The notes: generated by a model from the letters alone, not told the origin. A DNA stretch of 64,000 nt from an uncultured Candidatus Saccharibacteria bacterium (GCA_964505005.1 CAZDFQ010000004.1:5172-69171), one strand, 5' to 3'; positions 34,044 through 58,255 are shown, counted from the first letter of the stretch. Made by a program: numbers and translations.

Positions 34044-34080
34044 AGGAGGGGTGCCGTTAAGGGCCCCTCCTTTGTCATTT
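34044..34080 (+). terminator. Rho-independent terminator
   Basis: 'aggaggggtgccgttaagggcccctcct' followed by 'ttgtcattt'. Confidence 0.55.
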
Positions 34081-36752: not shown

Positions 36753-36834
36753 TTTTCAATGCTCAATTTTCAATGAACCGAAAATTGAAAAACGGAATCA
36801 TTGATAATTGGAAATTGATAATCGATAATTTCCC
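36753..36834. repeat. Family C palindromic intergenic element ('tcaattttcaat / attgaaaa' units) in the ruvA/uvrB divergent region
   Basis: 'atcaattttcaatgctcaattttcaatgaaccgaaaattgaaaaacggaatcattgataattggaaattgataatcgataatt'. Confidence 0.5.
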
Positions 36835-38709: not shown

Positions 38710-38735
38710 GAAAAAAAATATAAGCTTTTATAACT

Positions 38736-39829: not shown

Positions 39830-39832
39830 AGT

Positions 39833-40030
39833 ATGATTGAATCTCTAATTCCTAATCTCTAAATCCTCCAATTGGCAGCGAGGAGAAAGCAAATGAATTA
39901 GACATTTATTTTCGACGAGCGAACCAATTGATGAAATGAAGTTTCATTAACAAATCCAAAACTCAAATTTCAAAACGATTTAGAATTTTGGGTTTTGATA
40001 TTTGAGATTGTTTAGAGATTAGGGTTTAGA
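39833..40030. mobile_element. Family A MITE-like element with the conserved core (second copy of the virB4-splitting element)
   Basis: 'aatcctccaattggcagcgaggagaaagcaaatgaattagacatttattttcgacgagcg...gaagtttcattaacaaatcc' is co-linear with 12058-12170. Confidence 0.55.
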
Positions 40031-40032
40031 AA

Positions 40033-41715: not shown

Positions 41716-41756
41716 TGCCTTTCAGCAAGGCTGGGCAACTATTAAGGGCGCCTGAT

Positions 41757-42158
41757 TCAACTTCTGAATCTGTGCCGACTTTTATTAACAGGCGCTGGCA
41801 GACGGGCGCGGCTGCGGCGCTTCAGTTCATAATAATCGACGGCCTTCACGAGTTTAACCGGATATTTTTTAGTATTAAGCCGGATTTTTTCCTCAACGGT
41901 TTTCGAAACATCGATTTCTTCTGCCGAAGCAAATTCCAAACAGTAGACAATCACATCCGCTAATTCATACTCCATCTCCTTTTTATTCTTGCCTCTGTTT
42001 TTGAAAAAATCATCCCATTGAAAATGTTCCAAAAGTTCAGCGGCTTCAATCGCAATAGAGATGGCGAGGTCGCGCGACTTAGGATTCCAGCCGCGTTCCC
42101 GCTGGAATTTTTTAAGTTTATTTTTTAGCTGTTGAATGGTTGTTGTTTTATCGCTCAT
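41757..42158 (-). CDS. MazG-like nucleotide pyrophosphohydrolase
   Basis: 'RDLAISIAIEAAELLEHFQW...EMEYELADVIVY' matches the MazG EExxE pattern. The C-terminal ~20 aa read through a hairpin. Confidence 0.65.
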   Translation of the reverse strand: MSDKTTTIQQLKNKLKKFQRERGWNPKSRDLAISIAIEAAELLEHFQWDDFFKNRGKNKKEMEYELADVIVYCLEFASAEEIDVSKTVEEKIRLNTKKYPVKLVKAVDYYELKRRSRARLPAPVNKSRHRFRS

Positions 42159-42175
42159 GGTTTTTATCCCTTGAT

Positions 42176-42595
42176 TTAACCTAGCATAGCTAAAATAATC
42201 GCTCCAGCAACAATAAAAATAATTCCTAAAATTTTTGCGGCTGTTACGCTATCTCCGAGTAAAAACCCTATAGCAACTGCTATTGCTATACTTCCCCCGA
42301 TTATTATCGGCCCACCAATGCTTACCGGAACACCTCCTGAATACGCTTTTAATGCCAAGAAATCTATAAAGAAAGCCATTATGCCTGCAAGCACAACAAA
42401 AATTACGCCTTTTATGTCAACGATAAATTGTATATTTTTGTTTTTAATAAAGAAAATTATGCCAACAATGACAGCGGCCAGAGAAACAATAATCGCCCCT
42501 AAAACCTGACTAATGTAAGGTGAAGCAAGTTTATGAAAGACAGTCCACAAACCCAAAACTAATGCGGCTAGGATTGCAAAGATGTAGGGGTTCAT
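42176..42595 (-). CDS. Small four-TM membrane protein
   Basis: 139 aa, hydrophobic throughout. Confidence 0.45.
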   Translation of the reverse strand: MNPYIFAILAALVLGLWTVFHKLASPYISQVLGAIIVSLAAVIVGIIFFIKNKNIQFIVDIKGVIFVVLAGIMAFFIDFLALKAYSGGVPVSIGGPIIIGGSIAIAVAIGFLLGDSVTAAKILGIIFIVAGAIILAMLG

Positions 42596-42605
42596 TATAT
42601 TTGTC

Positions 42606-43475
42606 TTATTTCTGGCATTTCGGGCAAAAATGAGCGGTCCGGCCGCCGATTTTCAGCCGACTGATTTTCGTGCCGCAGCGCCGGCAGGGCTGGCCAGCAC
42701 GCTGGTACACCAAGCGGCTGTTGGTGTAATTGCCGGGTCGGCCAGCCGGGTCCCGATAATCACTGGTGGAAGTGCCGCGCAAACGCACGGCTTTTTTCAA
42801 AATGAAATTCATAGCCAGAAAAAGATTTTTCAACTCCCTCTCGCTCAACTTTTCCGCCGGTTTAGCCGGATGAATTTTAGCCCGCCAAAGAATCTCATCC
42901 GAATAAATGTTGCCTATGCCGGCAATCACTTCCTGATCCATCAAAATCGGCTTGATTTTCCGCTTTTCGGCTTTGATTAAACTTTTGAATTTTTCAAAAT
43001 TCAATTCCGGAGACAGCGGCTCTGGGCCGAGGCTCTGAAGGTCCGCGGAGTTCTCGATTTCTTTCTTCGGCCCGAAAAGGATTTTCGCAAATTTCCGCAA
43101 ATCCGACAAGCCGAGCATCCGGCCGTCATCAAGTTTAAACATCAAGTGGAGATAGTCGTTCACTTTTTCCTGAAGCGGCCCCTTGCTAACGCTTTCCCAT
43201 TTCCCCTGTCTCATTTGCCATTTACCAATCAGGAGGTGGCCGGTCATTTTCTGGTGGATTAAAAGCAGCTGCTGTTGGTCAAGCTCGAAGAGAATGTTTT
43301 TGGCACGGCGGCTAATTTTCTCGATGCGGCGGCCGATAATCCTCTTTTTGAATTCTTCGGGTTTCGGCTTTTTAATCAGCTTCGGCCAGTCGAACCAGAC
43401 ATCGGTAATCCGCCGGCCGATGATTTTTTTCTTGAGAGTATTGACGGTGGTTTCGACTTCGGGGAGTTCAGGCAT
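42606..43475 (-). CDS. mutM: Formamidopyrimidine-DNA glycosylase
   Basis: 'MPELPEVETTV' N-terminal Pro/Glu catalytic dyad and a C-terminal zinc finger 'CRRCGTKI...CPKCQ'. Confidence 0.9.
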   Translation of the reverse strand: MPELPEVETTVNTLKKKIIGRRITDVWFDWPKLIKKPKPEEFKKRIIGRRIEKISRRAKNILFELDQQQLLLIHQKMTGHLLIGKWQMRQGKWESVSKGPLQEKVNDYLHLMFKLDDGRMLGLSDLRKFAKILFGPKKEIENSADLQSLGPEPLSPELNFEKFKSLIKAEKRKIKPILMDQEVIAGIGNIYSDEILWRAKIHPAKPAEKLSERELKNLFLAMNFILKKAVRLRGTSTSDYRDPAGRPGNYTNSRLVYQRAGQPCRRCGTKISRLKIGGRTAHFCPKCQK

Positions 43476-43479
43476 AATA

Positions 43480-43612
43480 ATATAAAAAATCCTAAATCCT
43501 AATCCCTAAATCCAAATGTTCTAAATTTAAAATGGGTTTAGAATTTTGGGTTTCGGTTATTTGTCCGCCACCCGGCGGATTGTTTAGAAATTAGGATTTA
43601 GAAATTAGAGAT
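43480..43612. repeat. Family A palindromic MITE-like element between mutM and the histidine kinase
   Basis: 'cctaaatcctaatccctaaatccaaat...ttgtttagaaattaggatttagaaattagagattta' with a 'ccgccacccggcgg' central palindrome. Confidence 0.55.
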
Positions 43613-44947
43613 TTATTCCATTATTGGTATTTCTCGTTGCGGCACCAGATTTTTGTCTGTCGGCAGAGTGAAATGGAAAACGCTGCCGCGATTTAGTTCT
43701 GACTCGGCTCCTATTTCCCCTCCATGAGTTCGGACTATGTTTCTGGCGATGTAAAGTCCGAGGCCGGTTCCCTCGGTCTGAAACTTTAGCGCATTGTCGG
43801 CCCGGAAGAATTTGCTGAAAAGTTTCTGCAGGTCTTCGGCCGGAACGCCGATGCCGGTGTCTTTCACGCTTACTTTCAAAAATGGCTTGTCGGGAATTTG
43901 TTCGGCCTTGACGATAACTTCGCCGTTTTTCACATTATAACGGATGGCATTATCCAAAAGATTGACGAGTACCAGGGAAAGTTTCCGGGTATCGGCAAAA
44001 ACCAACGGCAACTGCCCGGTTGGCGCATCGAAATAAAGCCGCACGCCGGCTTGATGCGCTTGAGGCGAAACTTGTTCAAGAATTTTATTCAAAAATTCTA
44101 CAAGATTAATTGGCTCGAAATTGTAGCCGAATTTACCTTCTTCAATTTTCGCCACGTCTAAAATATCCTCCACGGTTTTTACTAAAAGCTGGCTGGCCTC
44201 GAGCGCTTTCTTCGCAATCTCTCGATTATTATCACTTAGGTTTCTATCTGCCGCCAGGGCTTCGAGGGCCCAGGTGATGTTGGTCAGCGGTGTTTTGAGT
44301 TGGTGTGAAGCCACGGTTATAAATTCACTTTTTTCTTTTAAAAGAACGACTTCCCGGGTACGGTCGCGGATGATTTTCATGAATTTTTCCGGCTGACCTC
44401 CGGCAACTGCCGGACTGCCGAGCCTTGAGGTAATAATGCGGAATTCCAAAGCCGGCTCTTGGAAAGAGACATCGACAACCTGGGGCCACTCGCCGCTGGC
44501 CGACCGCGGGACCATTACCGGAGCCAGGGAAGGAAAAAGAGTTTGGACCAGAAGCTGGAGCTTAGGGTTCTCGGCATCCTGCGGCGAAATAGCTTTGCCT
44601 TCAACGCTGCCGGCGCCTATCCCAAAGAGTTTTTCAGCCGCTGGATTAAAAGAAATTATCCGGAAATCCTGGTCGTAAATAATCAGGGCGTCAGCCAGGC
44701 TGTCGATAAATTTCTTAAATTCCTGGTTTTTTCCGGCTGGCTCGCGGCTGGGCCGGCGGCCGCCGGCCCAGCTCAAGAAAAAGAAAATTACTATTCCTGA
44801 AATAAAGATGGCGTTCAGCCAACCCCATAAACCCGGCAGTCCCAACAGGCCAATCAGCAAAAGAACAATACCAAAAGTCAAAACCAGAAAAAGGTAGATA
44901 TAAGCCCGCCAGTCAGCGGTTTCAAAAAATCTTTTGAAAGCATTCAT
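43613..44947 (-). CDS. Sensor histidine kinase (PAS, HisKA, HATPase_c); no adjacent response regulator
   Basis: Two TM helices, H-box 'ASHQLKTPLTNI', and G-boxes 'DTGIGVP' and 'GTGLGL'. Confidence 0.85.
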   Translation of the reverse strand: MNAFKRFFETADWRAYIYLFLVLTFGIVLLLIGLLGLPGLWGWLNAIFISGIVIFFFLSWAGGRRPSREPAGKNQEFKKFIDSLADALIIYDQDFRIISFNPAAEKLFGIGAGSVEGKAISPQDAENPKLQLLVQTLFPSLAPVMVPRSASGEWPQVVDVSFQEPALEFRIITSRLGSPAVAGGQPEKFMKIIRDRTREVVLLKEKSEFITVASHQLKTPLTNITWALEALAADRNLSDNNREIAKKALEASQLLVKTVEDILDVAKIEEGKFGYNFEPINLVEFLNKILEQVSPQAHQAGVRLYFDAPTGQLPLVFADTRKLSLVLVNLLDNAIRYNVKNGEVIVKAEQIPDKPFLKVSVKDTGIGVPAEDLQKLFSKFFRADNALKFQTEGTGLGLYIARNIVRTHGGEIGAESELNRGSVFHFTLPTDKNLVPQREIPIME

Positions 44948-44991
44948 TTTGAGGAATTATATCATAAAATCCGGCGCTTCTCGGTAAGCAG

Positions 44992-45999
44992 TCAGGAAAA
45001 TATTTTGCCTTGGCCAGCTGGCTCTTTCGGCTCGGTCGCCTGAATGTTGTCCAGTCTTTTGAGAATCATTTTGAAGCCGGCTTTTTGGAAATATTCTCTA
45101 AGTTCATCCCGATTATTTTTTATTCTAAGCTCGTCTATTTCGCCGACTCCCAGGTCGAGATTTCTTTCGAGCGTCACCAATTTTTTGGAAAGCATTGCTT
45201 GTCCCTCATTTTCCTGAAGTTTTTCTCTGATTTTTCCCGGTGTTTCAGCCAGATTCTCGTAAATTTTTTCGAGATTGCCGAATTTTTTCAGAAGCTCAGT
45301 GGCGGTTTTTGGTCCAATGCCTTTTACGCCTCTAATGTTGTCCGAGACGTCGCCGATTAAGGCCTTGTAGTCAATCAGCTGTGACGGTTTTAGGCCATAG
45401 CGTTCTTCAACCGCTTTTTCGTCGTACAAGGTTGTTTCGCTGATTCCTTTTCGGAAGGTCCGGACAACTATTTTTTCGTCTTTTATCAGCTGGAGGGTGT
45501 CCAAATCGCCGGTCAAAATCACAATCTGTAAATCATTTTTTCCGTCCGAGGCGGATTCCTGCTCGTCCCTGCCTTGCCGGCAGGCGGGCGACAGGCGGGC
45601 GCCCTTGGCGGAAAATCTTTCCGCCAGGGTCGCCACCAAATCATCGGCCTCGAAGCCGATTTTCTCAAACACTCGGATGCCGAATTTTTCAAAAAGCGCC
45701 TGGGCTTCAATGATTTGCGAAATAAGGTCATCGGGCGTCGGCGGCCGCTGGGCTTTGTATTTTGGATATTCTACTTCACGAAAAGTCGGCTCTGGTCGGT
45801 CAAAGGAAGCCGCGGCGTACTCCGGTTTCTCTTCTTTAGTTATTTTCAAGAGAATATTGGCTAAACCTAAAATTGCCTGAATCGGTCGGCCATCCGGCGC
45901 CGTCAATCTCGGCAGAGCGTGAAAGCAGCGGTGAATTAGGGAATTGGCGTCAATAAGAAGAAGGGTTTTCATGAGAATAAATTTAAATGCAAGATGCAA
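44992..45999 (-). CDS. 5'-3' exonuclease (FEN / PolI N-terminal-domain type)
   Basis: 'LLLIDANSLIHRCFHA' and 'GFEADDLVATLA' match 5'-3' exonuclease motifs. A repeat-derived insertion 'SPACRQGRDEQESASDG' is present. Confidence 0.8.
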   Translation of the reverse strand: MHLAFKFILMKTLLLIDANSLIHRCFHALPRLTAPDGRPIQAILGLANILLKITKEEKPEYAAASFDRPEPTFREVEYPKYKAQRPPTPDDLISQIIEAQALFEKFGIRVFEKIGFEADDLVATLAERFSAKGARLSPACRQGRDEQESASDGKNDLQIVILTGDLDTLQLIKDEKIVVRTFRKGISETTLYDEKAVEERYGLKPSQLIDYKALIGDVSDNIRGVKGIGPKTATELLKKFGNLEKIYENLAETPGKIREKLQENEGQAMLSKKLVTLERNLDLGVGEIDELRIKNNRDELREYFQKAGFKMILKRLDNIQATEPKEPAGQGKIFS

Positions 46000-46115: not shown

Positions 46116-46800
46116 TGTAAAATTTCCCGGCATTGTTTACATCGTTCGACTGGTGCAAAACAACGTTATGACAATCCATAAAAGGGCCTGCCCGCCACCT
46201 GTTCAGCATCAGGAAATCTCTCAAGTATTATAGGATTATAGGGAAAACAAGAGAATCTGCGGCTTGGGCCACGAGTCCAGCGCTTCTCGGCGGACGTCTA
46301 CCGCGCGCTCGAACCAGACAGAGACAAGGATTTCCCGTTCCCCAAAAGCACTAACAAGCAAGAATTCTGAGCAGCTATTTGTGGCTATTGATGATTTCTC
46401 GAGCGAGTTCTCCGCCGCCATTCTGCCGGACAAAGCGCAGTATTCCGCCACCAGATTCTTGGAACAGGCTGTCAAATGCCCCTATACCATTGAGGTGTGG
46501 TATACTGACAATAGCCGCGAGTTTGTCGGTAATCCCAAACCTCACGTCTTTATGAGGCTTCCCGCGATAAAAAAATTGAGCAATGCTTCACAAAGGCGAG
46601 GACTCCGAGGACCCGACGGCAAGGCGAAGAGGGCGATACAGCTGATTAGGGAAATGTGACACGAGAAAACAAGGCTTAAGAGCAGTGCATACAGGAGACA
46701 GAAGTTTATCAGGTTCGTGAACTGCTGCAACGCCGTGAAACCACCCAAGAGCATTGGAAACCTGACGCCGACGGGGAAGCTAATCAGCTATTTTTATCCC
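46116..46800 (+). mobile_element. Decayed IS481/IS3-superfamily insertion-sequence remnant (left terminal repeat plus truncated transposase)
   Basis: Terminal 'tgtaaaatttcccggcattgtttacat' with subterminal 'ttttacat' repeats. The internal transposase fragment has the rve-type 'FVAIDDFS' and 'VWYTDNSREF' motifs. Confidence 0.55.
46264..46659 (+). pseudogene. Transposase (DDE/rve integrase core) fragment, N- and C-terminally truncated
   Basis: Has 'FVAIDDFS' and 'TDNSREF' but lacks the upstream HTH and 'W..D.T' region. Confidence 0.55.
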
Positions 46801-49293: not shown

Positions 49294-49370
49294 GTCCCCG
49301 TGGTGTAACTGGATAAGACGTCGGCCTCCGAAGCCGAAGATTGGCCGTTCAAGTCGGCCCGGGGACACCA
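49294..49370 (+). tRNA. tRNA-Arg (anticodon CCG), CCA encoded
   Basis: Acceptor 'GTCCCCG/CGGGGAC', anticodon arm 'TCGGC-CTCCGAA-GCCGA' (U33, CCG, A37), T-arm 'GGCCG-TTCAAGT-CGGCC', A20 and discriminator A, 3' 'ACCA'. Confidence 0.8.
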
Positions 49371-49412
49371 AAAGTTCACTTCCCGCGACTTGGCCAACTT
49401 TTATTATTTTCT

Positions 49413-49868
49413 ATGGATTGCGTTTTCTGTAAAATTGTAAAAGGAGAAGTACCCGCCCATAAAATCTGGGAAGACGAAAAACATCTTGCGTTTCTCTCTA
49501 TCTTTCCAAACACTGAAGGGGTTTCCGTCGTAATTACAAAGGAACATTTTCCGTCATATGTTTTTGATTTACCGGAAGAAGTTTTAATCGGTTTAGTTAA
49601 GGCCGCGAAACAGACGGCAAAATTGCTTGACGCGAGATTGGAAGATGTCGGCCGCACGGGTATGATTTTTGAGGGGTTTGGCGTTGATCACGCCCATGTA
49701 AAGCTTTTCCCGATGCACGGCACGAAAATGTCAGAATGGAAACCGATTAAATCGAATGTTGATAAATATTTTGAGAAATACGAAGGGTATATTTCTTCTC
49801 ATGATTACAAACGTGCTGATGATGAAAAGTTAGCTGAACTTGCTAAAAAATTACGAAATCAGGAATAA
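49413..49868 (+). CDS. HIT-family nucleotide hydrolase
   Basis: 'FCKIVKGEVPAHKIWEDEKHLAFLSIFP' and the histidine triad 'DHAHVKLFP'. Start trimmed to 49413 so it does not overlap the tRNA. Confidence 0.75.
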   Translation: MDCVFCKIVKGEVPAHKIWEDEKHLAFLSIFPNTEGVSVVITKEHFPSYVFDLPEEVLIGLVKAAKQTAKLLDARLEDVGRTGMIFEGFGVDHAHVKLFPMHGTKMSEWKPIKSNVDKYFEKYEGYISSHDYKRADDEKLAELAKKLRNQE

Positions 49869-49974
49869 ACATAAACAAAAGTAATAGGGACAATATCCTA
49901 TGCTGAATATGGAAGGCCTGACTGTATAACAGCAGTCAGGCCTTGATATATTTTTTACGGCAGGTGTTCAGATG

Positions 49975-50616
49975 TTATTTCTCTCCTACAAACACCCAGT
50001 GTGCAGAGAGGTAGGGAGTTCCCACATCAATCAGGCCGCCGTGCTTCAAGTGGTAAACCTCAATAGCCTTGAAGCATTGCATGAGTGAGCGGGTCTCCTC
50101 TTCGTCCACGAAGTGATGGGGTACGCCAGCTTCAATCCCCTCGTTGGGGACGAAGGTGTGTGGTTCTATCTCTTCGCCTCTCCGGTATTCAGAGCTTTCA
50201 CGGGAGATGAATGTGCACATGACAATTCCTCCCGGGGACAACGTGCGGCGCATCTCCGCGATGCAAGCACAGATGCCGCTCACAGTGTTGTGAGTAATGA
50301 CTCCTCGACAGATGCACGCATCGAAGAAGTCATCCGGATAAGGAATCACTGTCATGTCGCTCATTACGAGTTCGGCTTGAAGACCCTCTTGTTCAAGCCA
50401 ATTTCTCGTAACTTGTTCGCCTCTCTTGGAGATGTCGGTCCCGTACATCATAAATCCCAGTTTTGCGAGGTAGACGATGTGACGTCCAGCCCCGAATCCG
50501 AGATCGAGCACCCGCTTGGCTCCGCGAAATCGGAGAATTGACACGACTTTCACGACTTCTTCTGCGGGATCTTTCAGGCAGAATTTCGCGTCTTTGTAAA
50601 GATCGTCCCAGTTCAT
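49975..50616 (-). CDS. Class I SAM-dependent methyltransferase (first gene, by coordinate, of the GC-rich island)
   Basis: 'VLDLGFGAGRHIVYLAKLG' SAM-binding motif I. Start chosen at 50616 with SD 'gggagg'; the longer ORF would overlap the upstream aaRS gene. Confidence 0.65.
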   Translation of the reverse strand: MNWDDLYKDAKFCLKDPAEEVVKVVSILRFRGAKRVLDLGFGAGRHIVYLAKLGFMMYGTDISKRGEQVTRNWLEQEGLQAELVMSDMTVIPYPDDFFDACICRGVITHNTVSGICACIAEMRRTLSPGGIVMCTFISRESSEYRRGEEIEPHTFVPNEGIEAGVPHHFVDEEETRSLMQCFKAIEVYHLKHGGLIDVGTPYLSAHWVFVGEK

Positions 50617-50698
50617 GTTAGCCGACCTCCCATGAGATGGAGCGGATGACCGGGAAGCACTCCGCCTCCCGGTCATCCTATTATTCCTTACTCGCAAG

Positions 50699-52006
50699 TC
50701 ACGGCGTGAGCCGATTGACTCCTCGATAGAGGTATGTCACCTCGCGCACGGATTTGGCACCCAGCATCACCATGAGCATGCGGGTGAGGCCGAAGCCGTA
50801 GCCGCCGTGAGGCGGGCAGCCGAAACGGAAGCAGTCCAGATAGTACTGGATAGGCTCAAGCGAGAGCCCTTTCTCCCTGGCCTGCGCCACAAGAACGTCG
50901 TAGCGATGTTCACGCTGCGCCCCCGTCGTCACCTCAAGTCCTTTCCAGAGAAGGTCGAAGCTTTTGGTGAGGTGGGGCTTGCCTTCCGGACGCATGTGGT
51001 AGAACGGCCGCACCACCAATGGGTACTCGGTGACGAAGACGAACTCGTGTCCGGTCTTCTCTTGGAAGTGCCGGCACAGAAGCCGCTCGCCTTCGGGGTC
51101 GAGGTCGCCCTTTTCGCCCCGCTCGACGCGATGTTCCATCTGCTCGAGGATTTCGTACGCCTCGGCCATGGTTACCCGCGGGAACGGAAGCTCGGGGACT
51201 ACGATCTCTGTGCCGAACGTTGCCTTGATCTCCCCGCCGTACTCGGCTTTCACCGCTTGAAGTACGTGGCGGAGCCAGCGTTCCTCAAGTTGCATGACGT
51301 CCTCGTGGGAATCAATCCATGAGATTTCAACGTCAACACTGGTGAATTCCGTGTCGTGGCGGGAAGTGAAGGACGGATTGGCCCGGAAGACCGGCCCGAT
51401 CTCGAAGACGCGATCGAAGCCCGCCGCCATCGCCATTTGCTTGTAGAATTGCGGCGATTGGGCAAGGTACGCCTTGCGGTCGAAGTACTTCACTTCGAAA
51501 AGCTCCGCACCCGATTCGCTCGCGCTGCCCATGAACTTCGGAGAATGGATCTCAATAAATTCCTCCGCTGTCCAGAACGAACGCATGGCGTGTTCAGCCG
51601 CCGTCTGGATTTTGAAGATGAGCAGGTTCTGCGGGTTGCGCAGATCCAGAAATCTCCAGTCCAGACGTGTTTCGAGACCGGTGTTTTCGTCGAGAGGCAG
51701 AGGTGTGTCCGCCTTGCTCACGACCGCAACCGACTCAGCGACGATCTCTAGTCCGCCCAGCTTCACCACCGGATTGAGGATAACTCTGCCGGTGATTTCC
51801 ACTGCGCTTTCCGGCGTGAGGCCGGCGATGGCTGCGGTGAGTTCAGCGTTGATCGACTTCTCGTGCACTACCTGCGCGCTGCCGGTGTGGTCACGGACGA
51901 TGAGAAACTGCATCTTCTTTTGGTCGCGCAGCCTCTCAACCCATCCGCAGATCCGAACGGCCTCGCCGTTCTTGGTTCCGAGTTGCTTGATCAGTATTCG
52001 TTGCAT
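50699..52006 (-). CDS. aspS: Aspartyl-tRNA synthetase, archaeal/eukaryotic-type (class IIb, ~435 aa)
   Basis: Co-linear with archaeal AspRS: 'DTPLPLDENTGLETRLDWRFLDLR', 'QSPQFYKQ', 'GPVFRA', 'GGYGFGLTRML', ending '...NRLTP'. The conserved 'FPRD' is replaced by 'YRGV'. Confidence 0.7.
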   Translation of the reverse strand: MQRILIKQLGTKNGEAVRICGWVERLRDQKKMQFLIVRDHTGSAQVVHEKSINAELTAAIAGLTPESAVEITGRVILNPVVKLGGLEIVAESVAVVSKADTPLPLDENTGLETRLDWRFLDLRNPQNLLIFKIQTAAEHAMRSFWTAEEFIEIHSPKFMGSASESGAELFEVKYFDRKAYLAQSPQFYKQMAMAAGFDRVFEIGPVFRANPSFTSRHDTEFTSVDVEISWIDSHEDVMQLEERWLRHVLQAVKAEYGGEIKATFGTEIVVPELPFPRVTMAEAYEILEQMEHRVERGEKGDLDPEGERLLCRHFQEKTGHEFVFVTEYPLVVRPFYHMRPEGKPHLTKSFDLLWKGLEVTTGAQREHRYDVLVAQAREKGLSLEPIQYYLDCFRFGCPPHGGYGFGLTRMLMVMLGAKSVREVTYLYRGVNRLTP

Positions 52007-52064
52007 GACTGTTTTCTCCTTTCAGTGTGCCTTGCCGATATTGGCTTAGCGTATGTGGTGGTGT

Positions 52065-53387
52065 TCATGGATTAATCCTCCTCCCGAACGCTCGGTGGAA
52101 AGGGATCGTGTCCCGCACATGCGGAATCTGCAGGAGCCAACGGATGAACCGTTCCAGCCCCAGACCGAAACCTCCGTGCGGCACACAGCCGTACTGACGA
52201 AGCTCCCGCAACCATTCGTAGCGGGCGTCGCCGGCTTTGCCTTTTTCTGCCAGACGCTCATCGAGCATCGGTAGTGTACTGATTTTCTCGGCAATACCGA
52301 GAAGCTCGCCATAACCCCGGCTTGCGATTAAATCCGCCGTCTTGGTGCGACGTGTATCCGACGGATCAATTACATACGGGAAGGGCTCGATGGAACGCGG
52401 GATGCCGACAACCCAGAATGGGATGTCGCCGAATCGCTGGCTTAGCCTAGCTTCTTCATCAGAACCCAAGCTTTTGCCGAATTCGATGTCAAAGCCCTGC
52501 GCTTTGAGCCACTCCACGGCCTCCGTGTAGTCAATACGCGGAAACGGCGTTTTCAGACCGTCGCCGCACATTTCAGTGCCGATGACGTCAGCGAGCTCGC
52601 GTCCTTCACGGATGCTTTGCTCGTTCACGTCCCGAATGAACCGCTCGACCACGGAGACCATGTCTTCCAGATCCACAAAAGCCAGCTCAGCCTTGATATG
52701 CCAGTACTCCATGAGATGTCTCTTGGAGCGGCTTTCCTCGGCACGAAAACTGGGGCCGATGTTGTAGATCTTTTCGAAAGCGTGCACCGCGGCTTCGAGG
52801 TAGAACCCGACGCACTGCGTGAGATACACGTTTTGGCCGTGAACCTTGAGCGCAATCGGTGTTCGGTCGTCGTAGAGCGGTGTCGGCGTGAGCACGGGAG
52901 CGTGAACCTCGGTGAATCCATTTTCGTGGAACCACTGATGTACGGCTCGTGTGAGGATGTGGCGAAACCTCAGGATGGCGGCAATTTTCTCGTTGCGGAG
53001 ATAAAAGTACCGCTTGTCCAGAAGTTGCTCTTGCATCCTCGGATCCTGAATATCAATGTTCGCCCGCGGGTACGGGGAGACATTGATCTCGCTCGTGCCG
53101 ACGATTTCGATTTCCCGCACACGAAGCTCTCTTGGCGGATTAGGCCGTCCGGTTTCTGCAATGATTCCGGTAGCCTTGACCGCCGTTTCTTGGCTCATGC
53201 GACGTGCGAGTTCGAAAGCGGCTTTGTTGCCATCTTCGATCACGCACTGCACCGTGCCGGTGGAATCAGCGATGTCCAGAAAGACAACGCGGCTGTGGCC
53301 GCGGCGGGTTTTCACCCATCCGTAGAATTCGACCCTGCTACTGTTTGGAATGTGTTTGAGCAAGTCAACTGCATATACCCTTTTCAT
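52065..53387 (-). CDS. asnS: Asparaginyl-tRNA synthetase (class IIb)
   Basis: 'IGPSFRAEESRSKRHLMEYWHIKAELAF' motif 2 and 'RYEWLRELRQYGCVPHGGFGLGLERFIRWLLQIPHVRDTIPFHR' are co-linear with the E. coli AsnS C-terminus. The 'FPR' motif is altered to 'FHR'. Confidence 0.75.
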   Translation of the reverse strand: MKRVYAVDLLKHIPNSSRVEFYGWVKTRRGHSRVVFLDIADSTGTVQCVIEDGNKAAFELARRMSQETAVKATGIIAETGRPNPPRELRVREIEIVGTSEINVSPYPRANIDIQDPRMQEQLLDKRYFYLRNEKIAAILRFRHILTRAVHQWFHENGFTEVHAPVLTPTPLYDDRTPIALKVHGQNVYLTQCVGFYLEAAVHAFEKIYNIGPSFRAEESRSKRHLMEYWHIKAELAFVDLEDMVSVVERFIRDVNEQSIREGRELADVIGTEMCGDGLKTPFPRIDYTEAVEWLKAQGFDIEFGKSLGSDEEARLSQRFGDIPFWVVGIPRSIEPFPYVIDPSDTRRTKTADLIASRGYGELLGIAEKISTLPMLDERLAEKGKAGDARYEWLRELRQYGCVPHGGFGLGLERFIRWLLQIPHVRDTIPFHRAFGRRINP

Positions 53388-53854
53388 TTTTTCTTTCCTC
53401 CTTGTCGTATCCTTTGGAACGCGGCAGAGAATGTTGCGGGTGAGTTCGGTATAACGCCAGTGTAATATTTGTATACGCTATTCCAGTAACGATCTTGTAA
53501 CGCATCGTTTAAATACACACTGTTTTCTCTATTTAGTTGTTAAAGAACTCTCAATAACCTCCCGGAGTAATTCCAGAGAGGAATATAAATTTTGACATTT
53601 ATGGATAGTTTTGTAAAGAAGTAATATAAGGGTAATCTAAGCCAATTGGTACAGCTCTACTATCATGGAAAGTATGTACCAATTCAACCAAATACCATCA
53701 GAAGCAAAGGTCGAGAAATACTTCCGGCGGATTCTGTTCGGGAAGAATATGTTTTGTCCTCTGTTTTAATTCGGAAAATATCACGATAGAATTGACTCTG
53801 TCTGTAATTAGTTTTCATTTCGGCCGAGAAAATATCTCGAAAAGAAAAAGGATT

Positions 53855-53905
53855 TAAATAACAAAACAAAAAGGCGGAGAGGCCTTCTTGGTGTATCTCT
53901 CCGCC
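53855..53905 (-). terminator. Rho-independent terminator of the RiPP-like operon
   Basis: 'ggcggagag-gccttcttggtgtat-ctctccgcc', followed on the minus strand by 'tttttgttttgtt'. Confidence 0.6.
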
Positions 53906-53925
53906 CTTTGCTGGCTGAGGGTATC

Positions 53926-54972
53926 TTACCGTCTTCTGATGCTTAGTTGCCTCATTATTCTCGCTTCGCGACAGGTTCGGGTTGCAGGCGTCCGCATATC
54001 TCCAGCCTCAATATGATTGAGACCTAGACATGGTCGGCAGTATTTCAGCAGCTCGCAACTGCCGCACTTCAGGCCTTGGAGCGTTACCGAGCGCATATCA
54101 AGGAGTTGTGGCGAGTTCTCCCAGATATCCGCAAAAGGACGTTCTGTTACATTCCCGCATCGAAGGGGCATTTGGACGCAGGGGTACACGTCCCCGTACG
54201 GGGAAATGTAGCAGGACATGTGCCCGGCGCCGCAGGGGATAGTGTTGAATGAACCGGTGTATGCTTCCTCGCGTTCCATTTCCGTGCCTGTTTCCTCTTT
54301 ATTGAAATTGAAGAGAGGATCAGAGAGGAGGTGGGGGAGGTACTCGTCATCCACACAGAACTGAAGCGGCCGGTCGCTGCCGTCGCTTTTGGGTGCGAGG
54401 CGATAGTCCGTCTGGAATCGCGCTCCAATTTCTTTCGCGAAGGCGTGGATCTCGCGCCAATCCTCTTTGTTTTGTTCCATGATGACGGAGGATATTTTCA
54501 CTCGCGCTTTGCGCTCTCGGAGCATTTTCGCCGCCCGGATGGATTTCTGGAGCGAACCCAGGCCCCGGGTGATTGCATCGTGAAGTTTGGGATCCAAGCT
54601 GTAGATGCTAATGGCAACAAGCTCCGGATACAAGGCGGCGATGCGGTCTGCGCTTCCTTCGGTGAGCAGCGTGCCGTTGGTCAGGAGTCGGAGAGCGAAG
54701 TTCAGTTCGCGCGCGTACTCCGCTATCTCGAACAAGTCTTTGCGCGCCATAATCTCGCCCCCGCTAAGGGTGAGATAAAGCGTTCCGACTGCGGCTAACT
54801 GCTCTAGTGTTCGCTTTGCTTGAGTAGTAGCGAGCTCCGGTCGGGCCTGCGCCGTAATGTAGCAGTGAACGCAGTCCAAATTGCAACGGTAGGTGAGGTC
54901 GAAGTGGGCTACCAGAGGAATTTTGCTCCTCAGCGCTTTCTCGCGCAGGGTCTCGAAAAGGTTAAGGTTCAT
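53926..54972 (-). CDS. Radical SAM/SPASM-domain peptide-modifying enzyme (PqqE/MftC-like maturase)
   Basis: 'FDLTYRCNLDCVHCY' CX3CX2C cluster and a C-terminal SPASM 'CGAGHMSCYISPYGDVYPC...CGSCELLKYCRPCLG'. Start is an ATGA overlap with the upstream PqqD-like gene. Confidence 0.8.
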   Translation of the reverse strand: MNLNLFETLREKALRSKIPLVAHFDLTYRCNLDCVHCYITAQARPELATTQAKRTLEQLAAVGTLYLTLSGGEIMARKDLFEIAEYARELNFALRLLTNGTLLTEGSADRIAALYPELVAISIYSLDPKLHDAITRGLGSLQKSIRAAKMLRERKARVKISSVIMEQNKEDWREIHAFAKEIGARFQTDYRLAPKSDGSDRPLQFCVDDEYLPHLLSDPLFNFNKEETGTEMEREEAYTGSFNTIPCGAGHMSCYISPYGDVYPCVQMPLRCGNVTERPFADIWENSPQLLDMRSVTLQGLKCGSCELLKYCRPCLGLNHIEAGDMRTPATRTCREARIMRQLSIRRR

Positions 54973-55277
54973 TCCGGAGCTCCTTTCATGAGCAGCAGAT
55001 TCTTCTCTGTCATCTGGTTGATGAACTCGACGCAATCCCTTTCCAGTTCCTCTCGGCCGACATCAAATTCGGCCAGCAGCGCGTCAGTGATTTCCCGCAT
55101 GCTTTTCGTGCCATCAATCATCTCCCAGATGCGGGTGGCAACCGGGTTCAGGAGATGGAAAGCGGCCTCCCGCAAATCCACCGCCACTGCTTGACCGGCG
55201 ATTACCCGCCAAGCGATAATTTCTCTATTCTTCGTCGGAATGCCATCCGAGACGTCTACTGCTCGTTCGTCCCTCAT
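54969..55277 (-). CDS. PqqD-family RiPP recognition element (RRE) protein
   Basis: 'AFHLLNPVATRIWEMIDGTKSMREITDALLAEFDVGREELERDCVEFINQMTEKNLL' matches the PqqD family. SD 'ggagacagcataATG'. Confidence 0.75.
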   Translation of the reverse strand: MRDERAVDVSDGIPTKNREIIAWRVIAGQAVAVDLREAAFHLLNPVATRIWEMIDGTKSMREITDALLAEFDVGREELERDCVEFINQMTEKNLLLMKGAPE

Positions 55278-55362
55278 TATGCTGTCTCCTCTGCTGGTTG
55301 TTTTAGGTTTTTTCAGGTTTCTATGTCTAATCTATCAAAATTAAACCTCGACATCAATTTAT

Positions 55363-56217
55363 TTATTTCTTCCCACTTACGGCGTAGGAAGTATAAATGT
55401 CTCCGAAGCGCGGGAGGAAGTTCTTCCGACTTAATTCCGGGCTACTGAAAAATGTTTGATAATTGATATTGCGGAATTTAAGCCGCCTAAGATAGCCGAC
55501 TATTATATTACTAGCAGCAAATTCAATCTTATATTTCTGGGCTAATTTTAGGCTAGTGGAATTTTTTTCATAGACCAGGCCGCTCAAAACCAATCGGCCG
55601 CTTCTTTTTAAAACTCTTTGAGATTCTTTAACCCCCGCGTGGATATTCGGTTCGTCAAGGCCATGCCAAGAACTTACGCTGTCAATTGATTGGTCGGCAA
55701 ACGGCATGCATCTAGCATCAGCGCAGATAATGCTGACTTTAGAATATTTACCGAGCCGCTGTAATAAGATTTTAAGCCCGACGGCGCTGGCATAATCAAT
55801 TTCCAAAGCAATGACTTTACCACGACTTTTGTCGAGTATGTTTCTCAAAAATCTGCCGGTTCCGCTGGCCCAATCCAGATGAATCCCGCTTTCTGAAAGA
55901 ATAAGCTGGCGGGTCATCCACTTTATTTCCTTCTTTAGATAAGCAAGCTCTCGCGGGTTGAAGTTTTTAAGCCATTTGTTTTTTAATTCCTGTTTTGTGA
56001 TAAAGTTTAAAATTTTGCGGAGGCGCGCCTTATTCTTGTCTTTACAACTGAGGGAACGAAAGCAAGCAATGTCATCGATAACCGCGAATTTAGCGGCACA
56101 ACCTTGGCAAATCAGGATGCCTTGTTTAATTCTTGTCTCCGAAGATTCGTCTTCTTCCAAATGCAACGGCGATTTACACTTAGGACATGTGAGAATGGAA
56201 AGCAGGTCGCGGTTCAT
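55363..56217 (-). CDS. Methyltransferase with N-terminal Trm112-like zinc ribbon fused to a class I SAM MTase domain
   Basis: 'LSILTCPKCKSPLHL...LICQGCAAKFAV' zinc ribbon, then 'LDWASGTGRF' SAM motif I. Confidence 0.7.
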   Translation of the reverse strand: MNRDLLSILTCPKCKSPLHLEEDESSETRIKQGILICQGCAAKFAVIDDIACFRSLSCKDKNKARLRKILNFITKQELKNKWLKNFNPRELAYLKKEIKWMTRQLILSESGIHLDWASGTGRFLRNILDKSRGKVIALEIDYASAVGLKILLQRLGKYSKVSIICADARCMPFADQSIDSVSSWHGLDEPNIHAGVKESQRVLKRSGRLVLSGLVYEKNSTSLKLAQKYKIEFAASNIIVGYLRRLKFRNINYQTFFSSPELSRKNFLPRFGDIYTSYAVSGKK

Positions 56218-56243
56218 AATCGAAAAATTTATAGGTATGATTG

Positions 56244-56289
56244 TTATGCCGTACTAAAATAGAGAGAACGCCCAGAGCACCGACGACTC
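56244..56289 (-). terminator. Intra-operon attenuator/leaky-terminator hairpin between the candidate precursor and the modification genes
   Basis: Minus-strand 'agaacgctcagagtcgtcggtgctctgggcgttct' followed by 'ctctatttt'. Confidence 0.4.
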
Positions 56290-56312
56290 TGAGCGTTCTT
56301 TGCGCGACAACC

Positions 56313-56459
56313 CTATCCCTTCTTCGGAGAGAAGGGCTGGCCGCAGAACTTGACACTGGTCGTGGGACAGTCCCCCATCCGTTCCTGAGGCTCTGCCCCC
56401 GAGACCGTCCGTGGCGGCTCGTACTGCTTCTTGGTTGCCGCGGCTTCGCCTTTCTTCAT
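56313..56459 (-). CDS. Candidate RiPP precursor peptide (48 aa)
   Basis: Manual translation gives 'MKKGEAAATKKQYEPPRTVSGAEPQERMGDCPTTSVKFCGQPFSPKKG'. Consensus SD 'GGAGGTG' lies 6 nt upstream of the ATG. It is the first gene of the operon, followed by the attenuator hairpin; under 60 aa so absent from the ORF track. Confidence 0.45.
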   Translation of the reverse strand: MKKGEAAATKKQYEPPRTVSGAEPQERMGDCPTTSVKFCGQPFSPKKG

Positions 56460-56527
56460 GGCCTTCACCTCCTTCCTGCCAAGTTTCTATTTTTAGGATA
56501 TTATTATAATTCAAAATGTCAATTATG

Positions 56528-56551
56528 TTGCCAAGGGGATTCGCCTGGCAA
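56528..56551. promoter_or_regulatory. Operator-like palindrome 'TTGCCA-N12-TGGCAA' next to a TTGACA -35 element upstream of the precursor gene
   Basis: 'ttgccaaggggattcgcctggcaa'. A TTGACA hexamer (minus strand) sits at 56517-56522. Confidence 0.4.
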
Positions 56552-56593
56552 TCTGGCTTTTAAATTTGAAAATACCGCATTAGAATTGTTTCT

Positions 56594-56875
56594 ATGCCCG
56601 GTAGTACAACTTCGAACAGATATTATGTCGTCTATACGCTGGAAAGCAGAAAAGACGGGAAAAGATACATCGGCTTGACCACTAATCTCCAAAAGAGAAT
56701 CAAGGAACATAATATGGGAAAATCCTTTTCAACCAGCCCTCGCCGGCCATTCAAGCTCATTTACGCCGAACTCTGCCTTAATTCCGAAGACGCCAAAAAA
56801 AGAGAGCGTTATCTGAAAACCACCGGAGGTCGCCGGTTTTTAGCTAAACGGCTTCGAGCTTATTATTCCCAATAA
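56594..56875 (+). CDS. GIY-YIG nuclease family protein (YhbQ/UPF0213-like, 93 aa)
   Basis: 'YYVVYTLESRKDGKRYIGLTTNLQKRIKEHN' is the GIY-YIG motif. Confidence 0.7.
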   Translation: MPGSTTSNRYYVVYTLESRKDGKRYIGLTTNLQKRIKEHNMGKSFSTSPRRPFKLIYAELCLNSEDAKKRERYLKTTGGRRFLAKRLRAYYSQ

Positions 56876-56932
56876 TTCGAAGCCCAGTAGCACAACTTCG
56901 TTGTCCTACTGGGCGAAGTTGTCCTACCGGGT
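56596..56932. mobile_element. Small palindromic cassette carrying the GIY-YIG gene
   Basis: Left repeat 'cccggtagtacaacttcg' at 56597-56614 overlaps the start codon. The right end has a direct copy 'cccagtagcacaacttcg' and an inverted copy 'cgaagttgtcctaccggg' abutting the next ATG. Confidence 0.5.
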
Positions 56933-58255
56933 ATGCGGTTCATTGCCGATTTACAAATTCATTCCAAATACAGCCGGGCCACCTCCAAAGAAATGGTTTT
57001 GGAAGAAATCGACCGCTGGGCCGGCAACAAAGAGATTTTGGTGATGGGCACCGGCGATTTTACCCATCCGGCCTGGTTTGAAGAAATCAAACAAAAGCTT
57101 GAGCCAGCTGAACCCGGCCTTTTCAAATTAAAAAAAGAATTCAAGTGGCCGACATTGCGCGGCGACTTGTCGGAAACACGTTTCCTTTTGGAAGTGGAAA
57201 TCTCCGGAATTTATTCGCGCCCCTCGGCGCGGCTCGGGGCAAACAAGACCTATCGGATTCACAATCTGATTTTTGCGCCGGACTTAGAAACCGCGGAAAA
57301 AATCAACACTCAGCTCGGCTGGATAGGGAATTTGAAATCTGACGGTCGGCCGATTCTGGGGTTGGACTCCGAAGAACTAGCCAAAATCGTTTTTAATACC
57401 AATCCTCAGGCGGTGATTGTCCCGGCCCACGCCTTCACCCCATGGTTCAGCTTGTTTGGTTCGATGTCTGGTTTTGATTCAATTACAGAATGTTTTGGCG
57501 AATATACAAAATATATCTTTGCTATTGAGACCGGGCTGTCCGCGGATCCTTCGATGTGCTGGCGAATGTCTCAACTTGATAATATTTCCTTAATATCCAA
57601 TTCCGATTCGCACTCGCTTCAGCGCATTGGCCGCGAAGCCAATATCTTTGACACTGAGCTTTCCTATGAGGGGATAATTGACGCAATCAGGTCTCGCGAC
57701 CCTAAAAAATTTTTAGCCACCATTGAATTTTTTCCCGAAGAAGGCAAATACCATTTGGATGGCCACCGACTCTGCGGCGTGGTCTTCGAGCCGGGCGAGA
57801 CGAAAAAACATAACGGCATCTGTCCCAAGTGTGGCCGGAAGCTGACCATCGGAGTTCTGAACCGAGTGGAAGAATTGGCTGACCGGCCGCCAGTCAAAGT
57901 AGAGATAAGCGGCTATCTTCATAAATACGAAAACCGTGTGCCATTTTATAATCTGGTGGCTCTTGACGAGGTGATTGCCCAAGCTTACGGACTCGGCGTG
58001 GCTTCGCGAAAAGTCAAGTCCGAGTACGAAAACCTGATTAAAAAATTCGGCGGCGAATTCAAAGTTCTAATGGAAACAAATGTTGAGGAATTGCGGGCTG
58101 GCGGCGCGCCGGAAGAAATCATCAAGAGTATTGTCGCGGTGCGCGAGGGCGAGGTGAAATTCGAGCCGCCGGGCTTTGACGGCGAATACGGCAAAATTTC
58201 CATTTTCAGCGAAAACGAAAGAAAAGAAATCGAGCCGCAGAAATCGTTGTTTTAA
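56933..58255 (+). CDS. Endonuclease Q (PHP-domain deaminated-base endonuclease, TIGR00375 family)
   Basis: N-terminus 'IADLQIHSKYSRATSKEM...VMGTGDFTHPAWFEE', 'PAHAFTPWFSLFGS', and 'KYHLDGHRLCG...ICPKCGRKLTIGVLNRVEELAD' are co-linear with archaeal EndoQ, including its zinc finger. Confidence 0.8.
   Translation: MRFIADLQIHSKYSRATSKEMVLEEIDRWAGNKEILVMGTGDFTHPAWFEEIKQKLEPAEPGLFKLKKEFKWPTLRGDLSETRFLLEVEISGIYSRPSARLGANKTYRIHNLIFAPDLETAEKINTQLGWIGNLKSDGRPILGLDSEELAKIVFNTNPQAVIVPAHAFTPWFSLFGSMSGFDSITECFGEYTKYIFAIETGLSADPSMCWRMSQLDNISLISNSDSHSLQRIGREANIFDTELSYEGIIDAIRSRDPKKFLATIEFFPEEGKYHLDGHRLCGVVFEPGETKKHNGICPKCGRKLTIGVLNRVEELADRPPVKVEISGYLHKYENRVPFYNLVALDEVIAQAYGLGVASRKVKSEYENLIKKFGGEFKVLMETNVEELRAGGAPEEIIKSIVAVREGEVKFEPPGFDGEYGKISIFSENERKEIEPQKSLF

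Follow-up and report, generated by a model that had tools for sequence, protein, structure and literature searches.

The 64,000-nucleotide stretch analyzed here (hereafter, the window), from an uncultured Candidatus Saccharibacteria bacterium, carries a genomic island between two backbone genes: that for tRNA-Arg(CCG) (49294-49370, plus strand; found by ARAGORN and matched by Rfam at 55 bits), which forms the proximal edge of a variable interval, and an EndoQ-like gene (TIGR00375 of NCBIfam; 56933-58255, plus strand), the first backbone gene past the island. The interval contains a module of asparaginyl- and aspartyl-tRNA synthetases (AsnRS and AspRS) with a HIT-family protein, an operon for a ribosomally synthesized and post-translationally modified peptide (RiPP), and a small GIY-YIG gene. 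The true island is the whole of this tRNA-Arg(CCG)-EndoQ interval (~49371-56932, 7.6 kb), and it is a mosaic; we regard it as probable that this mosaic is lineage-specific imported DNA in a hotspot of gene gain and loss within a Patescibacteria (Paceibacteria-type) lineage. As a genomic island, it belongs to a familiar class; its cargo, namely the AsnRS-AspRS-HIT cassette and the uncharacterized RiPP operon, is what makes it moderately interesting.

The gene nearest the tRNA encodes the HIT-family protein (49413-49868, plus strand; GC 40%), which matches Pfam HIT at 30.7 bits and PDB entry 1y23 at E=2e-12. It converges on a gene for a class-I S-adenosylmethionine (SAM) methyltransferase, here called MT1 (49975-50697, minus strand; Pfam Methyltransf_25/11), and between the two lies a GC-rich hairpin with a 13-bp stem followed by a T-run (49913-49944; terminator scan), a candidate bidirectional terminator. 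The AspRS gene (50699-52006, minus strand) scores 498 bits against NCBIfam NF003483 (cutoff 353) and 401 against TIGR00458 (cutoff 368), full length, which by sequence places it in the archaeal-type aspartate--tRNA(Asn) ligase family, nominally non-discriminating. The AsnRS (52065-53387, minus strand; Pfam tRNA-synt_2 plus an OB fold) is of an archaeal/Thermus-like type: it falls below the NCBIfam cutoffs (320 vs. 414 bits for NF003037 and 303 vs. 343 for TIGR00457), with AsnRS still the top family, and its best PDB relatives are the AsnRS of P. horikoshii (E=4e-82) and T. thermophilus (E=1e-71). Upstream of AsnRS are the last ~22 codons of a small open reading frame (ORF) of the same module (53388-53456, minus strand; tblastn and blastn), followed by an AT-rich filler (53457-53866, GC 38%) that separates the module from the RiPP operon and holds a promoter-like site (53617-53589, minus strand; promoter scan) that could drive AsnRS-AspRS.

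The RiPP operon is also encoded on the minus strand. Two promoter-like sites (56495-56551, each with 10/12 consensus positions) precede a gene with a strong Shine-Dalgarno sequence for a 48-aa precursor peptide, MKKGEAAATKKQYEPPRTVSGAEPQERMGDCPTTSVKFCGQPFSPKKG (56313-56459). Directly after it stands a strong hairpin (56265-56299; 14-bp stem and T-run), a candidate attenuator or partial terminator, and then genes for a methyltransferase with an N-terminal Trm112-like zinc ribbon (55363-56217; Pfam), a PqqD-like RiPP recognition element (RRE), or peptide chaperone (54969-55277; Pfam PqqD, E=3e-17), and a radical SAM (rSAM)/SPASM peptide maturase (53926-54972; Pfam Radical_SAM and SPASM). A terminator hairpin (53867-53890, minus strand; stem-loop and T-run directly after the rSAM stop codon) closes the operon. 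The distal-most island gene is a stand-alone GIY-YIG nuclease-domain gene of 93 aa (56594-56875, plus strand; PF01541, E=2e-16, 60.4 vs. 22.6 bits). An initial annotation of this DNA had described the gene content and layout correctly, with AsnRS, AspRS, and a methyltransferase on the same strand as a RiPP-like operon and a spacer between AsnRS and rSAM that measures 538 bp at 38.1% GC (53388-53925). Rfam matched only the tRNA, both across the window at gathering thresholds and at permissive ones over 53.3-57 kb, so the intergenic stretches correspond to no known RNA. Long antisense ORFs in the GC-rich genes (e.g., 52617-53465, plus strand) were dismissed as the usual by-product of coding sequence rich in G and C at third codon positions (GC3).

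In composition, the island departs from its surroundings. The overall GC of the window is 47.8% and patchy, and the segment containing AspRS, AsnRS, and MT1 (49975-53387) stands at the top of all 3.4-kb segments with 56.2% (mean 47.7%, sd 2.6; best outside the island, 53.1%). The sliding-window check that the initial annotation had called for thus finds its GC maximum here, and the rSAM and PqqD genes together reach 55.1%. For these two parts, the 55-60% GC claimed for 49975 to ~56500 holds; over 49975-56520 as a whole the value is 52.1%. The spacer is not GC-rich, and the Trm112-methyltransferase gene (42.6%) and the region 55278-56593 (43.5%) are host-like or lower. The GC values quoted earlier for the flanks are correct (dnaA 42.4%, HIT ~40%, EndoQ 48.4%). 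AspRS is the highest-GC3 gene of the window (GC 58.9%, GC3 74.3%, z=+2.9 vs. 47 other window genes), AsnRS follows the same trend (GC 55.9%, GC3 65.3%, z=+1.6), and HIT is unusually AT-rich (GC3 0.36, z=-2.4).

Foreignness is far clearer in the oligonucleotide signature than in GC. Tetranucleotide z-scores (TETRA) correlate with those of the remaining window at 0.12-0.34 for the tiles of 49.3-56.1 kb, compared to 0.55-0.78 for all others, and the correlation is back to 0.69-0.78 from 56.1 kb onward. By gene, the TETRA z-scores are -3.95 for AspRS, -3.71 for AsnRS, -2.37 for rSAM and PqqD, -1.5 for MT1, and -0.7 for the Trm112-methyltransferase, which like the GIY-YIG gene is compositionally not deviant. 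As calibration for a signature intrinsic to synthetases, homologous AspRS genes were scored against their own hosts (TETRA in 51 genomes, GC3 in 76 loci). In the 51 other genomes, these genes are host-typical in TETRA (mean z +0.12, sd 0.88), and in the 76 non-module loci, AspRS GC3 tracks the GC of the flanks (r=0.95, residual sd 0.057), with the window AspRS lying +3.6 sd above the line. The high GC3 is therefore not intrinsic to AspRS, and the value observed implies a home genome of 52-59% GC (~59% when read off this line).

The backbone around the island allows comparison with relatives, of which ~20 kb is visible per fetched locus (labeled L001-L180). No close relative of the organism is in the database, the closest non-self PyrG among 5.8 billion proteins being 77-78% identical, and the best protein matches of the window genes fall in Patescibacteria/Paceibacteria. 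Two loci, L089 and L090, are syntenic with the window over ~25 kb (PyrG 78%, RuvB 75-78%, and RuvA 59-61% identical), including the common order penicillin-binding protein (PBP), RuvC, YebC, T2SSE, RuvB, TsaE ... beta-CASP, LDcluster4, an 88-aa gene, and an amino-acid (AA) permease. In L089, the AA-permease and tRNA-Arg(CCG) occur as in the window and are followed by a large serine recombinase, DUF1003, and a uracil-DNA glycosylase (UDG), with no HIT or synthetase genes. This recombinase (~19000-20490, minus strand), which lies directly 3' of the tRNA and is apparently frameshifted (its resolvase domain is called separately), is probably what is left of another mobile element that occupied this hotspot.

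With the neighboring LDcluster4 gene as anchor, a metagenome scan returned 80 loci, ~25 of which have the arrangement AA-permease, tRNA-Arg(CCG), 1.7-8 kb of differing cargo, family-4 UDG (UDG4) or EndoQ, p115, ClpB, and PolX. The cargo includes a helix-turn-helix (HTH)-Fic/DOC gene (L100), unknown ORFs, MurB/PHP, and a radical-SAM gene with NUDIX. None of the HIT, MT1, AspRS, AsnRS, rSAM, PqqD, and Trm112-methyltransferase genes was found in this interval in the ~25 syntenic loci, relaxed thresholds included. A comparison with relatives lacking the island, as suggested in the initial annotation, hence finds a differently filled site in L089 and these ~25 loci. Because the island genes are missing from the interval in relatives and the cargo differs by lineage, the interval is a gene-gain hotspot. 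On the distal side, L112, L115, L121, L127, L161, L169, and L138 have EndoQ orthologs (52-66% identity) positioned after tRNA-Arg and before p115/ClpB; the closest relatives have the family-4 UDG before p115 and more distant ones EndoQ. The UDG is seen at the position of the window's EndoQ, just before p115-ClpB-PolX, in L089, L100, L101, L106, and L108, in what looks like a swap of two enzymes that both act on deaminated bases. The GIY-YIG gene is not at this position in relatives, and a 48% identical homolog occurs elsewhere in L127/L128.

When the synthetase genes are followed into other genomes, they are found to belong to a recurrent module. Database relatives of AspRS form ~35 clusters at >=85% identity (best 93%), and every contig fetched for AspRS matches has the same layout, in which a small ORF of 84-110 aa precedes AsnRS and AspRS and a HIT gene converges on them. 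The carriers are L001, L002/3/4, L005 (Ca. Wildermuthbacteria), L085/86, L088, and L180; in L087, the small ORF, AsnRS, and AspRS are present and the contig stops just past AspRS. Identity between the window and these copies is 86-93% for AspRS and 77-93% for AsnRS, and the HIT protein is 85-88% identical to the AspRS-convergent HIT of L001, L002, L005, L085, L088, and L180. HIT is part of the module in 9/9 other copies examined. Accordingly, the initial annotation erred in treating HIT as a housekeeping flank and boundary: since HIT belongs to the module, the island starts not at 49975, some 600 bp past the tRNA, but directly after it (~49371-49404). All six aligned copies of the HIT protein share the motif DHxHxKL, in which the third His is replaced by Lys and the canonical HxHxHxx triad is absent, and the HIT proteins of the window, L001, L002, L005, L085, and L088 also share a conserved C-terminal extension of ~40 aa.

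The flanks of the module are unrelated throughout: IleRS in L001, NUDIX and sortase genes in L002-L004, insertion sequences (IS) on both sides in L085/86, and rpoB together with a second AspRS in L087. In L002/L003, a large serine recombinase lies ~8 kb from the module. Variation extends to the slot separating AspRS from HIT, which is empty in L002, L085, L088, and L180, occupied by an amidohydrolase in L001, by MT1 and an amidohydrolase in L005, and by MT1 in the window, which makes MT1 the cargo of this slot; its ortholog in the same slot of L005 is 84% identical. A composite transposon was considered as the vehicle and rejected: there is no IS in the window island, and the two rve transposases flanking the module in L085 are 31% identical, with no long repeats.

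Among the copies, nucleotide homology spans ~3.65-3.75 kb and stops at two -35 boxes, one in the small-ORF promoter and the other in the HIT promoter. In the window, nucleotide homology at the proximal end starts only at 49404-49412, so the HIT promoter has been lost, and the junction of backbone and island falls between 49371 and ~49404, within ~35-45 nt of the tRNA 3' end. At the distal end, blastn homology stops at 53449-53456 in 5/7 aligned copies, giving a breakpoint at 53456/7, and tblastn with the small ORFs of L001 and L002 (84-110 aa) matches only at 53453-53388, where the ~22 codons are left. By these alignments, the window module is a copy truncated at both ends. All other module copies have the full small ORF with a conserved promoter and leader. 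This promoter-leader region lies upstream of the small ORF at ~8260-8390 in L001, ~8267-8370 in L002, ~3570-3674 in L085, and ~109-221 in L180, and consists of a promoter (CTTTACA, 17 nt, and a TAAGGT-like box) and a hairpin, CCTTGGGATGGTCTCAAGG, neither of which occurs in the window copy. The conserved hairpin may be a regulatory leader of the AsnRS-AspRS operon. Neither the filler (53457-53866) nor the region upstream of the RiPP operon is similar to any fetched locus, and the filler has no similarity elsewhere in the window. An exact-sequence look-up of the window AspRS returned no record, and literature searches returned no description of an AsnRS-AspRS-HIT cassette in Patescibacteria.

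Similarity within the module is discordant with that of the hosts. Between the window and L001, AspRS is 91%, AsnRS 93%, and HIT 86% identical, and the synthetases have unsaturated synonymous divergence (dS 0.37-0.47), with 0.75-0.80 identical codons at conserved residues compared to 0.40-0.45 expected at saturation. RuvA of the same two genomes is only 35% identical; that of L001 is 37-44% identical to all 14 syntenic loci tested, which themselves have 34-66% RuvA identity to the window (54-66% for the closest clade). Backbone genes of the true relatives are saturated in dS against the window. In a rough neighbor-joining tree, the AspRS genes of the module fall into one tight clade; their GC3 is 0.62-0.74 in hosts whose flanks range from 34 to 57% GC, with residuals of +2.5 to +7.0 sd from the line above, except for L001 (+0.5), whose flanks are 57% GC and where the AspRS GC3 fits the host. 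The synthetase pair is the lowest or near-lowest TETRA tile in L001, L002, L005, and L085. A higher-GC source, as initially suggested, is therefore plausible, given the 52-59% GC implied by AspRS GC3 and the fit to L001, but no donor was found and the pair is a TETRA outlier in every host examined. In L087, the GC-rich module copy (8367-11308; AspRS 90% identical to that of the window) adjoins the second AspRS (6832-8145, minus strand), which is 58% identical to that of the module and host-like in GC3 (0.32); both pass the NCBIfam aspartate--tRNA(Asn) ligase cutoff.

Within the module, the nearest neighbors of AsnRS and AspRS differ; against L085, for instance, AspRS is 91% identical with a dS of 0.58 and AsnRS 85% with a dS of 1.35. 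The module is thus internally mosaic. Of 80 GTDB loci encoding an AspRS at 58-69% identity (Chloroflexota, Solirubrobacterales, and others), only Patescibacteria-type contigs and two further loci have AsnRS or HIT next to it. The latter two are L067 (7394-10548), from a bin labeled 'archaeon', with a diverged module of 61% identical AspRS, a second class IIb gene, and 76% identical HIT, and L008 (8663-11305), from a bin labeled 'Bdellovibrionales', with 53% identical AsnRS and 65% identical AspRS. Either these bins are mislabeled or the module reaches further afield.

The RiPP operon has a different set of relatives. The ATG of rSAM overlaps the stop codon of PqqD (ATGA), making these coupled but separate genes; the best non-self homolog of rSAM is 61% identical, and most homologs are PqqD-rSAM fusions of ~455 aa from Patescibacteria and archaea. 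The Trm112-methyltransferase is 48% identical to a 285-aa methyltransferase that follows PqqD-rSAM in L093-L095, and in L091 peptides of 48-49 aa are encoded right after PqqD-rSAM. With the 49-aa peptide of L091 as query, tblastn retrieves the window precursor ORF (56459-56313) at 54% identity over 39 aa (E=5e-10), and the two share the core CPTT[SN]VK[FW]CG.P[FY]SPKKG, which in the window reads CPTTSVKFCGQPFSPKKG. The precursor has no Pfam or NCBIfam family. No NCBIfam equivalog reaches its cutoff for rSAM, the best hits falling far short (heme b synthase 162 bits, mycofactocin 154 vs. 265, StsB 121 vs. 625), and the maturase reaches none of the named RiPP classes (sactipeptide StsB/AlbA, mycofactocin, PQQ, GeoRSP, SCM, and others). 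The operon nonetheless has what characterizes an rSAM/SPASM-RRE cluster: a radical SAM core with SPASM, a PqqD-like RRE, and an adjacent precursor. Together with the promoter-like sites, the hairpin after the precursor, and the terminator after rSAM, the four genes form a complete operon.

With known rSAM/SPASM and PqqD (RRE) clusters (sactipeptide/ranthipeptide-like, PQQ, mycofactocin), this operon shares the coupled PqqD-maturase pair, the short precursor with a Cys-containing C-terminal core, its own promoter, a post-precursor hairpin, and a terminator; it differs in reaching no curated family at cutoff and in having the Trm112-ribbon methyltransferase as a conserved partner. Literature searches returned no description of this RiPP family in Patescibacteria, and the operon would add an uncharacterized precursor and maturase family that could be expressed heterologously. 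It is found in none of the module-bearing loci and in none of the syntenic relatives, and therefore arrived, as far as these loci indicate, independently of the synthetase module. The separate relatives and contexts of the two and the breakpoint at 53456/7 suggest at least two independently acquired units, in keeping with the earlier proposal of acquisition in more than one step.

These observations can be assembled into a scheme in which horizontal transfer would be the cause. The module would be a discrete unit of ~3.7 kb that is passed around distantly related Patescibacteria, recombining as it goes, with room for optional cargo between AspRS and HIT. Its full form would begin with a promoter and leader hairpin, continue with the small ORF, AsnRS, and AspRS, and include HIT in convergent orientation under a separate promoter. 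The window copy would supply direct charging of tRNA-Asn and tRNA-Asp; with its own promoters lost, AsnRS-AspRS would probably be transcribed from the AT-rich filler and HIT by read-through from the tRNA or permease. The RiPP operon would have been acquired separately as a self-contained unit (promoter, 48-aa Cys-containing precursor, hairpin, Trm112-methyltransferase, PqqD, rSAM/SPASM, and terminator), with a product that is most likely a methylated peptide with cross-links made by radical chemistry, and the small GIY-YIG gene would be a third part of the island. Our best guess for the entry of this DNA is recombination at the hotspot that also hosts the serine-recombinase element in L089.

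Several results weigh against this import of DNA into a hotspot. No integrase or recombinase is encoded among the island ORFs (Pfam, NCBIfam), nor is an integrase or transposase found in or around the island. There is no second copy of the 24-nt tRNA 3' end at <=3 mismatches that would suggest attachment (att) sites, and the repeats seen, of 14-19 nt, are at chance level. Terminal repeats are likewise missing from the module, and no viral copy of it was found, AspRS sequences in IMG/VR being only 48-50% identical. A donor search by tetranucleotides matched the module to no host flank, that of the GC-matched L001 included. The synthetases deviate mildly in codon usage, with a z-score of approximately -1.6 in leave-one-out codon likelihood compared to -3.1 for MT1 and -2.3 for rSAM, where rpsT is the only ribosomal-protein gene of the window. 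HIT shows a flat 85-88% identity with saturated synonymous sites and is AT-rich even in the GC-rich L001, from which it follows that the module is not a simple unit of a single age. The distance between hosts is measured mainly by RuvA, together with missing synteny, and with ~20 kb seen per relative, a module copy could lie elsewhere in the relatives' genomes. Finally, all sequences are from metagenome assemblies.

The first two of these points bear equally on an island of the classical kind, in which the whole interval would have entered the 3' end of tRNA-Arg as one element, by site-specific integration, and later lost its integrase and att sites to decay. The junction so close to the tRNA 3' end, the frameshifted serine recombinase directly after the same tRNA in L089, and an interval whose cargo differs with each lineage (including the HTH-Fic/DOC gene of L100) would all be expected of such an element. 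Yet, besides lacking a recombinase and a repeat of the tRNA 3' end in the window, the island has two main units with separate histories and a breakpoint between them, and elsewhere the module is not tRNA-associated (tRNA-Arg beside it in 0/8 loci), making a single classical integration improbable. Inverted repeats around the island are likewise short, chance-level matches. Of the initial description of tRNA-Arg as a classical integration hotspot, then, what stands is that the interval is filled differently in every syntenic relative; an integrase and a tRNA 3'-end repeat are missing. The island shares with known tRNA-adjacent islands its foreign composition, its position directly 3' of a tRNA, its absence in relatives, and its mosaic accessory cargo, and differs from them in being only 7.6 kb, in having no integrase or flanking direct repeats, and in carrying core translation enzymes.

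Vertical inheritance would instead hold that the synthetases are native, highly expressed, and constrained, that their GC3 results from codon selection, and that the flanks differ through rapid rearrangement in Patescibacteria. The module synthetases do favor NNC codons (Phe, Tyr, His, Asn, and Ile, 0.63-0.78), an expression-linked mark that fits their mild codon z-score; GC3 is also raised in other conserved window enzymes (UvrB 0.64, PilB 0.62); selection alone could produce homology that ends exactly at promoter boxes; and the saturated dS of HIT is expected of old vertical divergence. However, AspRS homologs follow host GC and are host-typical in TETRA in the calibration above, and the second AspRS of L087 is host-like even though it adjoins the module. 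The preferences of the synthetases for Leu CTC (0.43 vs. 0.15), Lys AAG (0.56 vs. 0.26), and Glu GAG differ in kind from those of the other conserved genes in the window. Vertical descent also sits poorly with the absence of the module from the tRNA-Arg interval in all syntenic relatives and with 91-93% identity and unsaturated dS against a host (L001) whose RuvA is 35% identical, and we consider it distinctly improbable.

A chimera of assembly or binning, with a conserved synthetase segment of another population stitched into the backbone, could be suspected from the metagenomic origin of the data, from a module 80-90% nucleotide-identical between co-occurring populations (the type of repeat that confuses assemblers), and from the abrupt composition change, but it is very improbable, because the same backbone resumes beyond the island in the order of the relatives (EndoQ, p115, ClpB, PolX) with TETRA back to host values, making the foreign DNA an internal insertion rather than an end-to-end join, while the window copy is unique (truncated at both ends, carrying MT1, and fused to the RiPP operon) and the module is present in 9 independent assemblies with long contigs of up to 695 kb.

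With a mosaic of imported DNA thus preferred, the module can be compared to other synthetases known to move between lineages. Deinococcus and Thermus have an archaeal-type second AspRS, and aminoacyl-tRNA synthetase 'homeoalleles' are exchanged between related lineages. In bacteria of the candidate phyla radiation (CPR), archaeal-type TyrRS/TrpRS operons occur, and the TrpRS-A operon travels with ORF1 (PMC5370408). As in such cases, the similarity of the module genes conflicts with that of the host backbone, a small ORF is conserved (cf. ORF1 of the TrpRS-A operon), and a native copy coexists in L087. Unlike them, two class IIb synthetases and HIT form one promoter-to-promoter unit of ~3.7 kb, which recombines internally and whose composition remains its own across hosts of 34-57% GC; nothing was found to tie it to archaea or to a special tRNA. 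We propose that the cassette keeps a bipartite GC-rich/AT-rich composition in these hosts and takes the place of the native AspRS or adds to it, as in L087.

That the cassette is mobile is, taken by itself, likely. That it is both horizontally mobile and selected for something more than plain housekeeping is a more tentative suggestion and, on balance, an unlikely one. For such a role, one could look to microcin C-type compounds: AspRS is the target of microcin C, MccH is a HIT phosphoramidase that detoxifies aminoacyl-adenylate mimics, and resistance synthetase paralogs occur on mobile DNA. As a lead only, the cassette shares with these immunity systems a mobile extra AspRS adjoining HIT and, in L087, a native AspRS that is kept; it differs in having no toxin biosynthesis genes linked to the module and in its atypical HIT motif (HxHxK). 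We find it doubtful that the cassette protects its host, as a resistance or immunity device, from toxins mimicking aminoacyl-adenylates, with HIT as the hydrolase that detoxifies them. Rescue of Asn and Asp charging in reduced genomes is another possible role. Should a mobile unit with a selective role be borne out, it would offer a compact natural case, among CPR bacteria, of decoding capacity or toxin resistance that can be transferred. More generally, the import of this island would mean that minimal, host-dependent Patescibacteria have a defined exchange hotspot downstream of tRNA-Arg(CCG) and that core translation enzymes are part of the traffic; AspRS, AsnRS, and the linked HIT would be unsafe as phylogenetic or binning markers in Patescibacteria, and composition-based binning may misplace such segments.

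The remaining genes of the window include dnaA, dnaN, the PBP gene, RuvABC, PyrG, UvrB, and type IV pilus and type IV secretion system (T4SS)-like genes. Near dnaA, the stretch 4636-17263 contains a run of large ORFs without Pfam matches and, among them, genes for a PrgI-family protein (10742-11251) and a TraG/VirB4-like P-loop ATPase (12255-13982); it resembles a type IV secretion or conjugation-like cluster. When compared to L089 and L090, the block from beta-CASP to a 5'-3' exonuclease (32169-45999) is inverted in the window. At one junction of the inversion is a 131-aa ORF (46264-46659) with a weak match to the rve integrase core (E=1e-5), which suggests that the 32.2-46.0 kb inversion was IS-mediated. 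The inverted segment includes UvrB, Fpg, and an alpha/beta hydrolase, none of which is in the matching stretch of L089. Outside the island, the gene at 26781-27668 (minus strand; no Pfam match) is the richest in GC of the window (61.4%), owing to its amino-acid composition (GC at second codon positions 0.51). Orthologs at the corresponding position in L089 and L090 likewise have 62-66% GC despite host GC of 55% and 44%, respectively, and in contrast to the island, this is a gene-specific, amino-acid-driven GC content that has been kept vertically.

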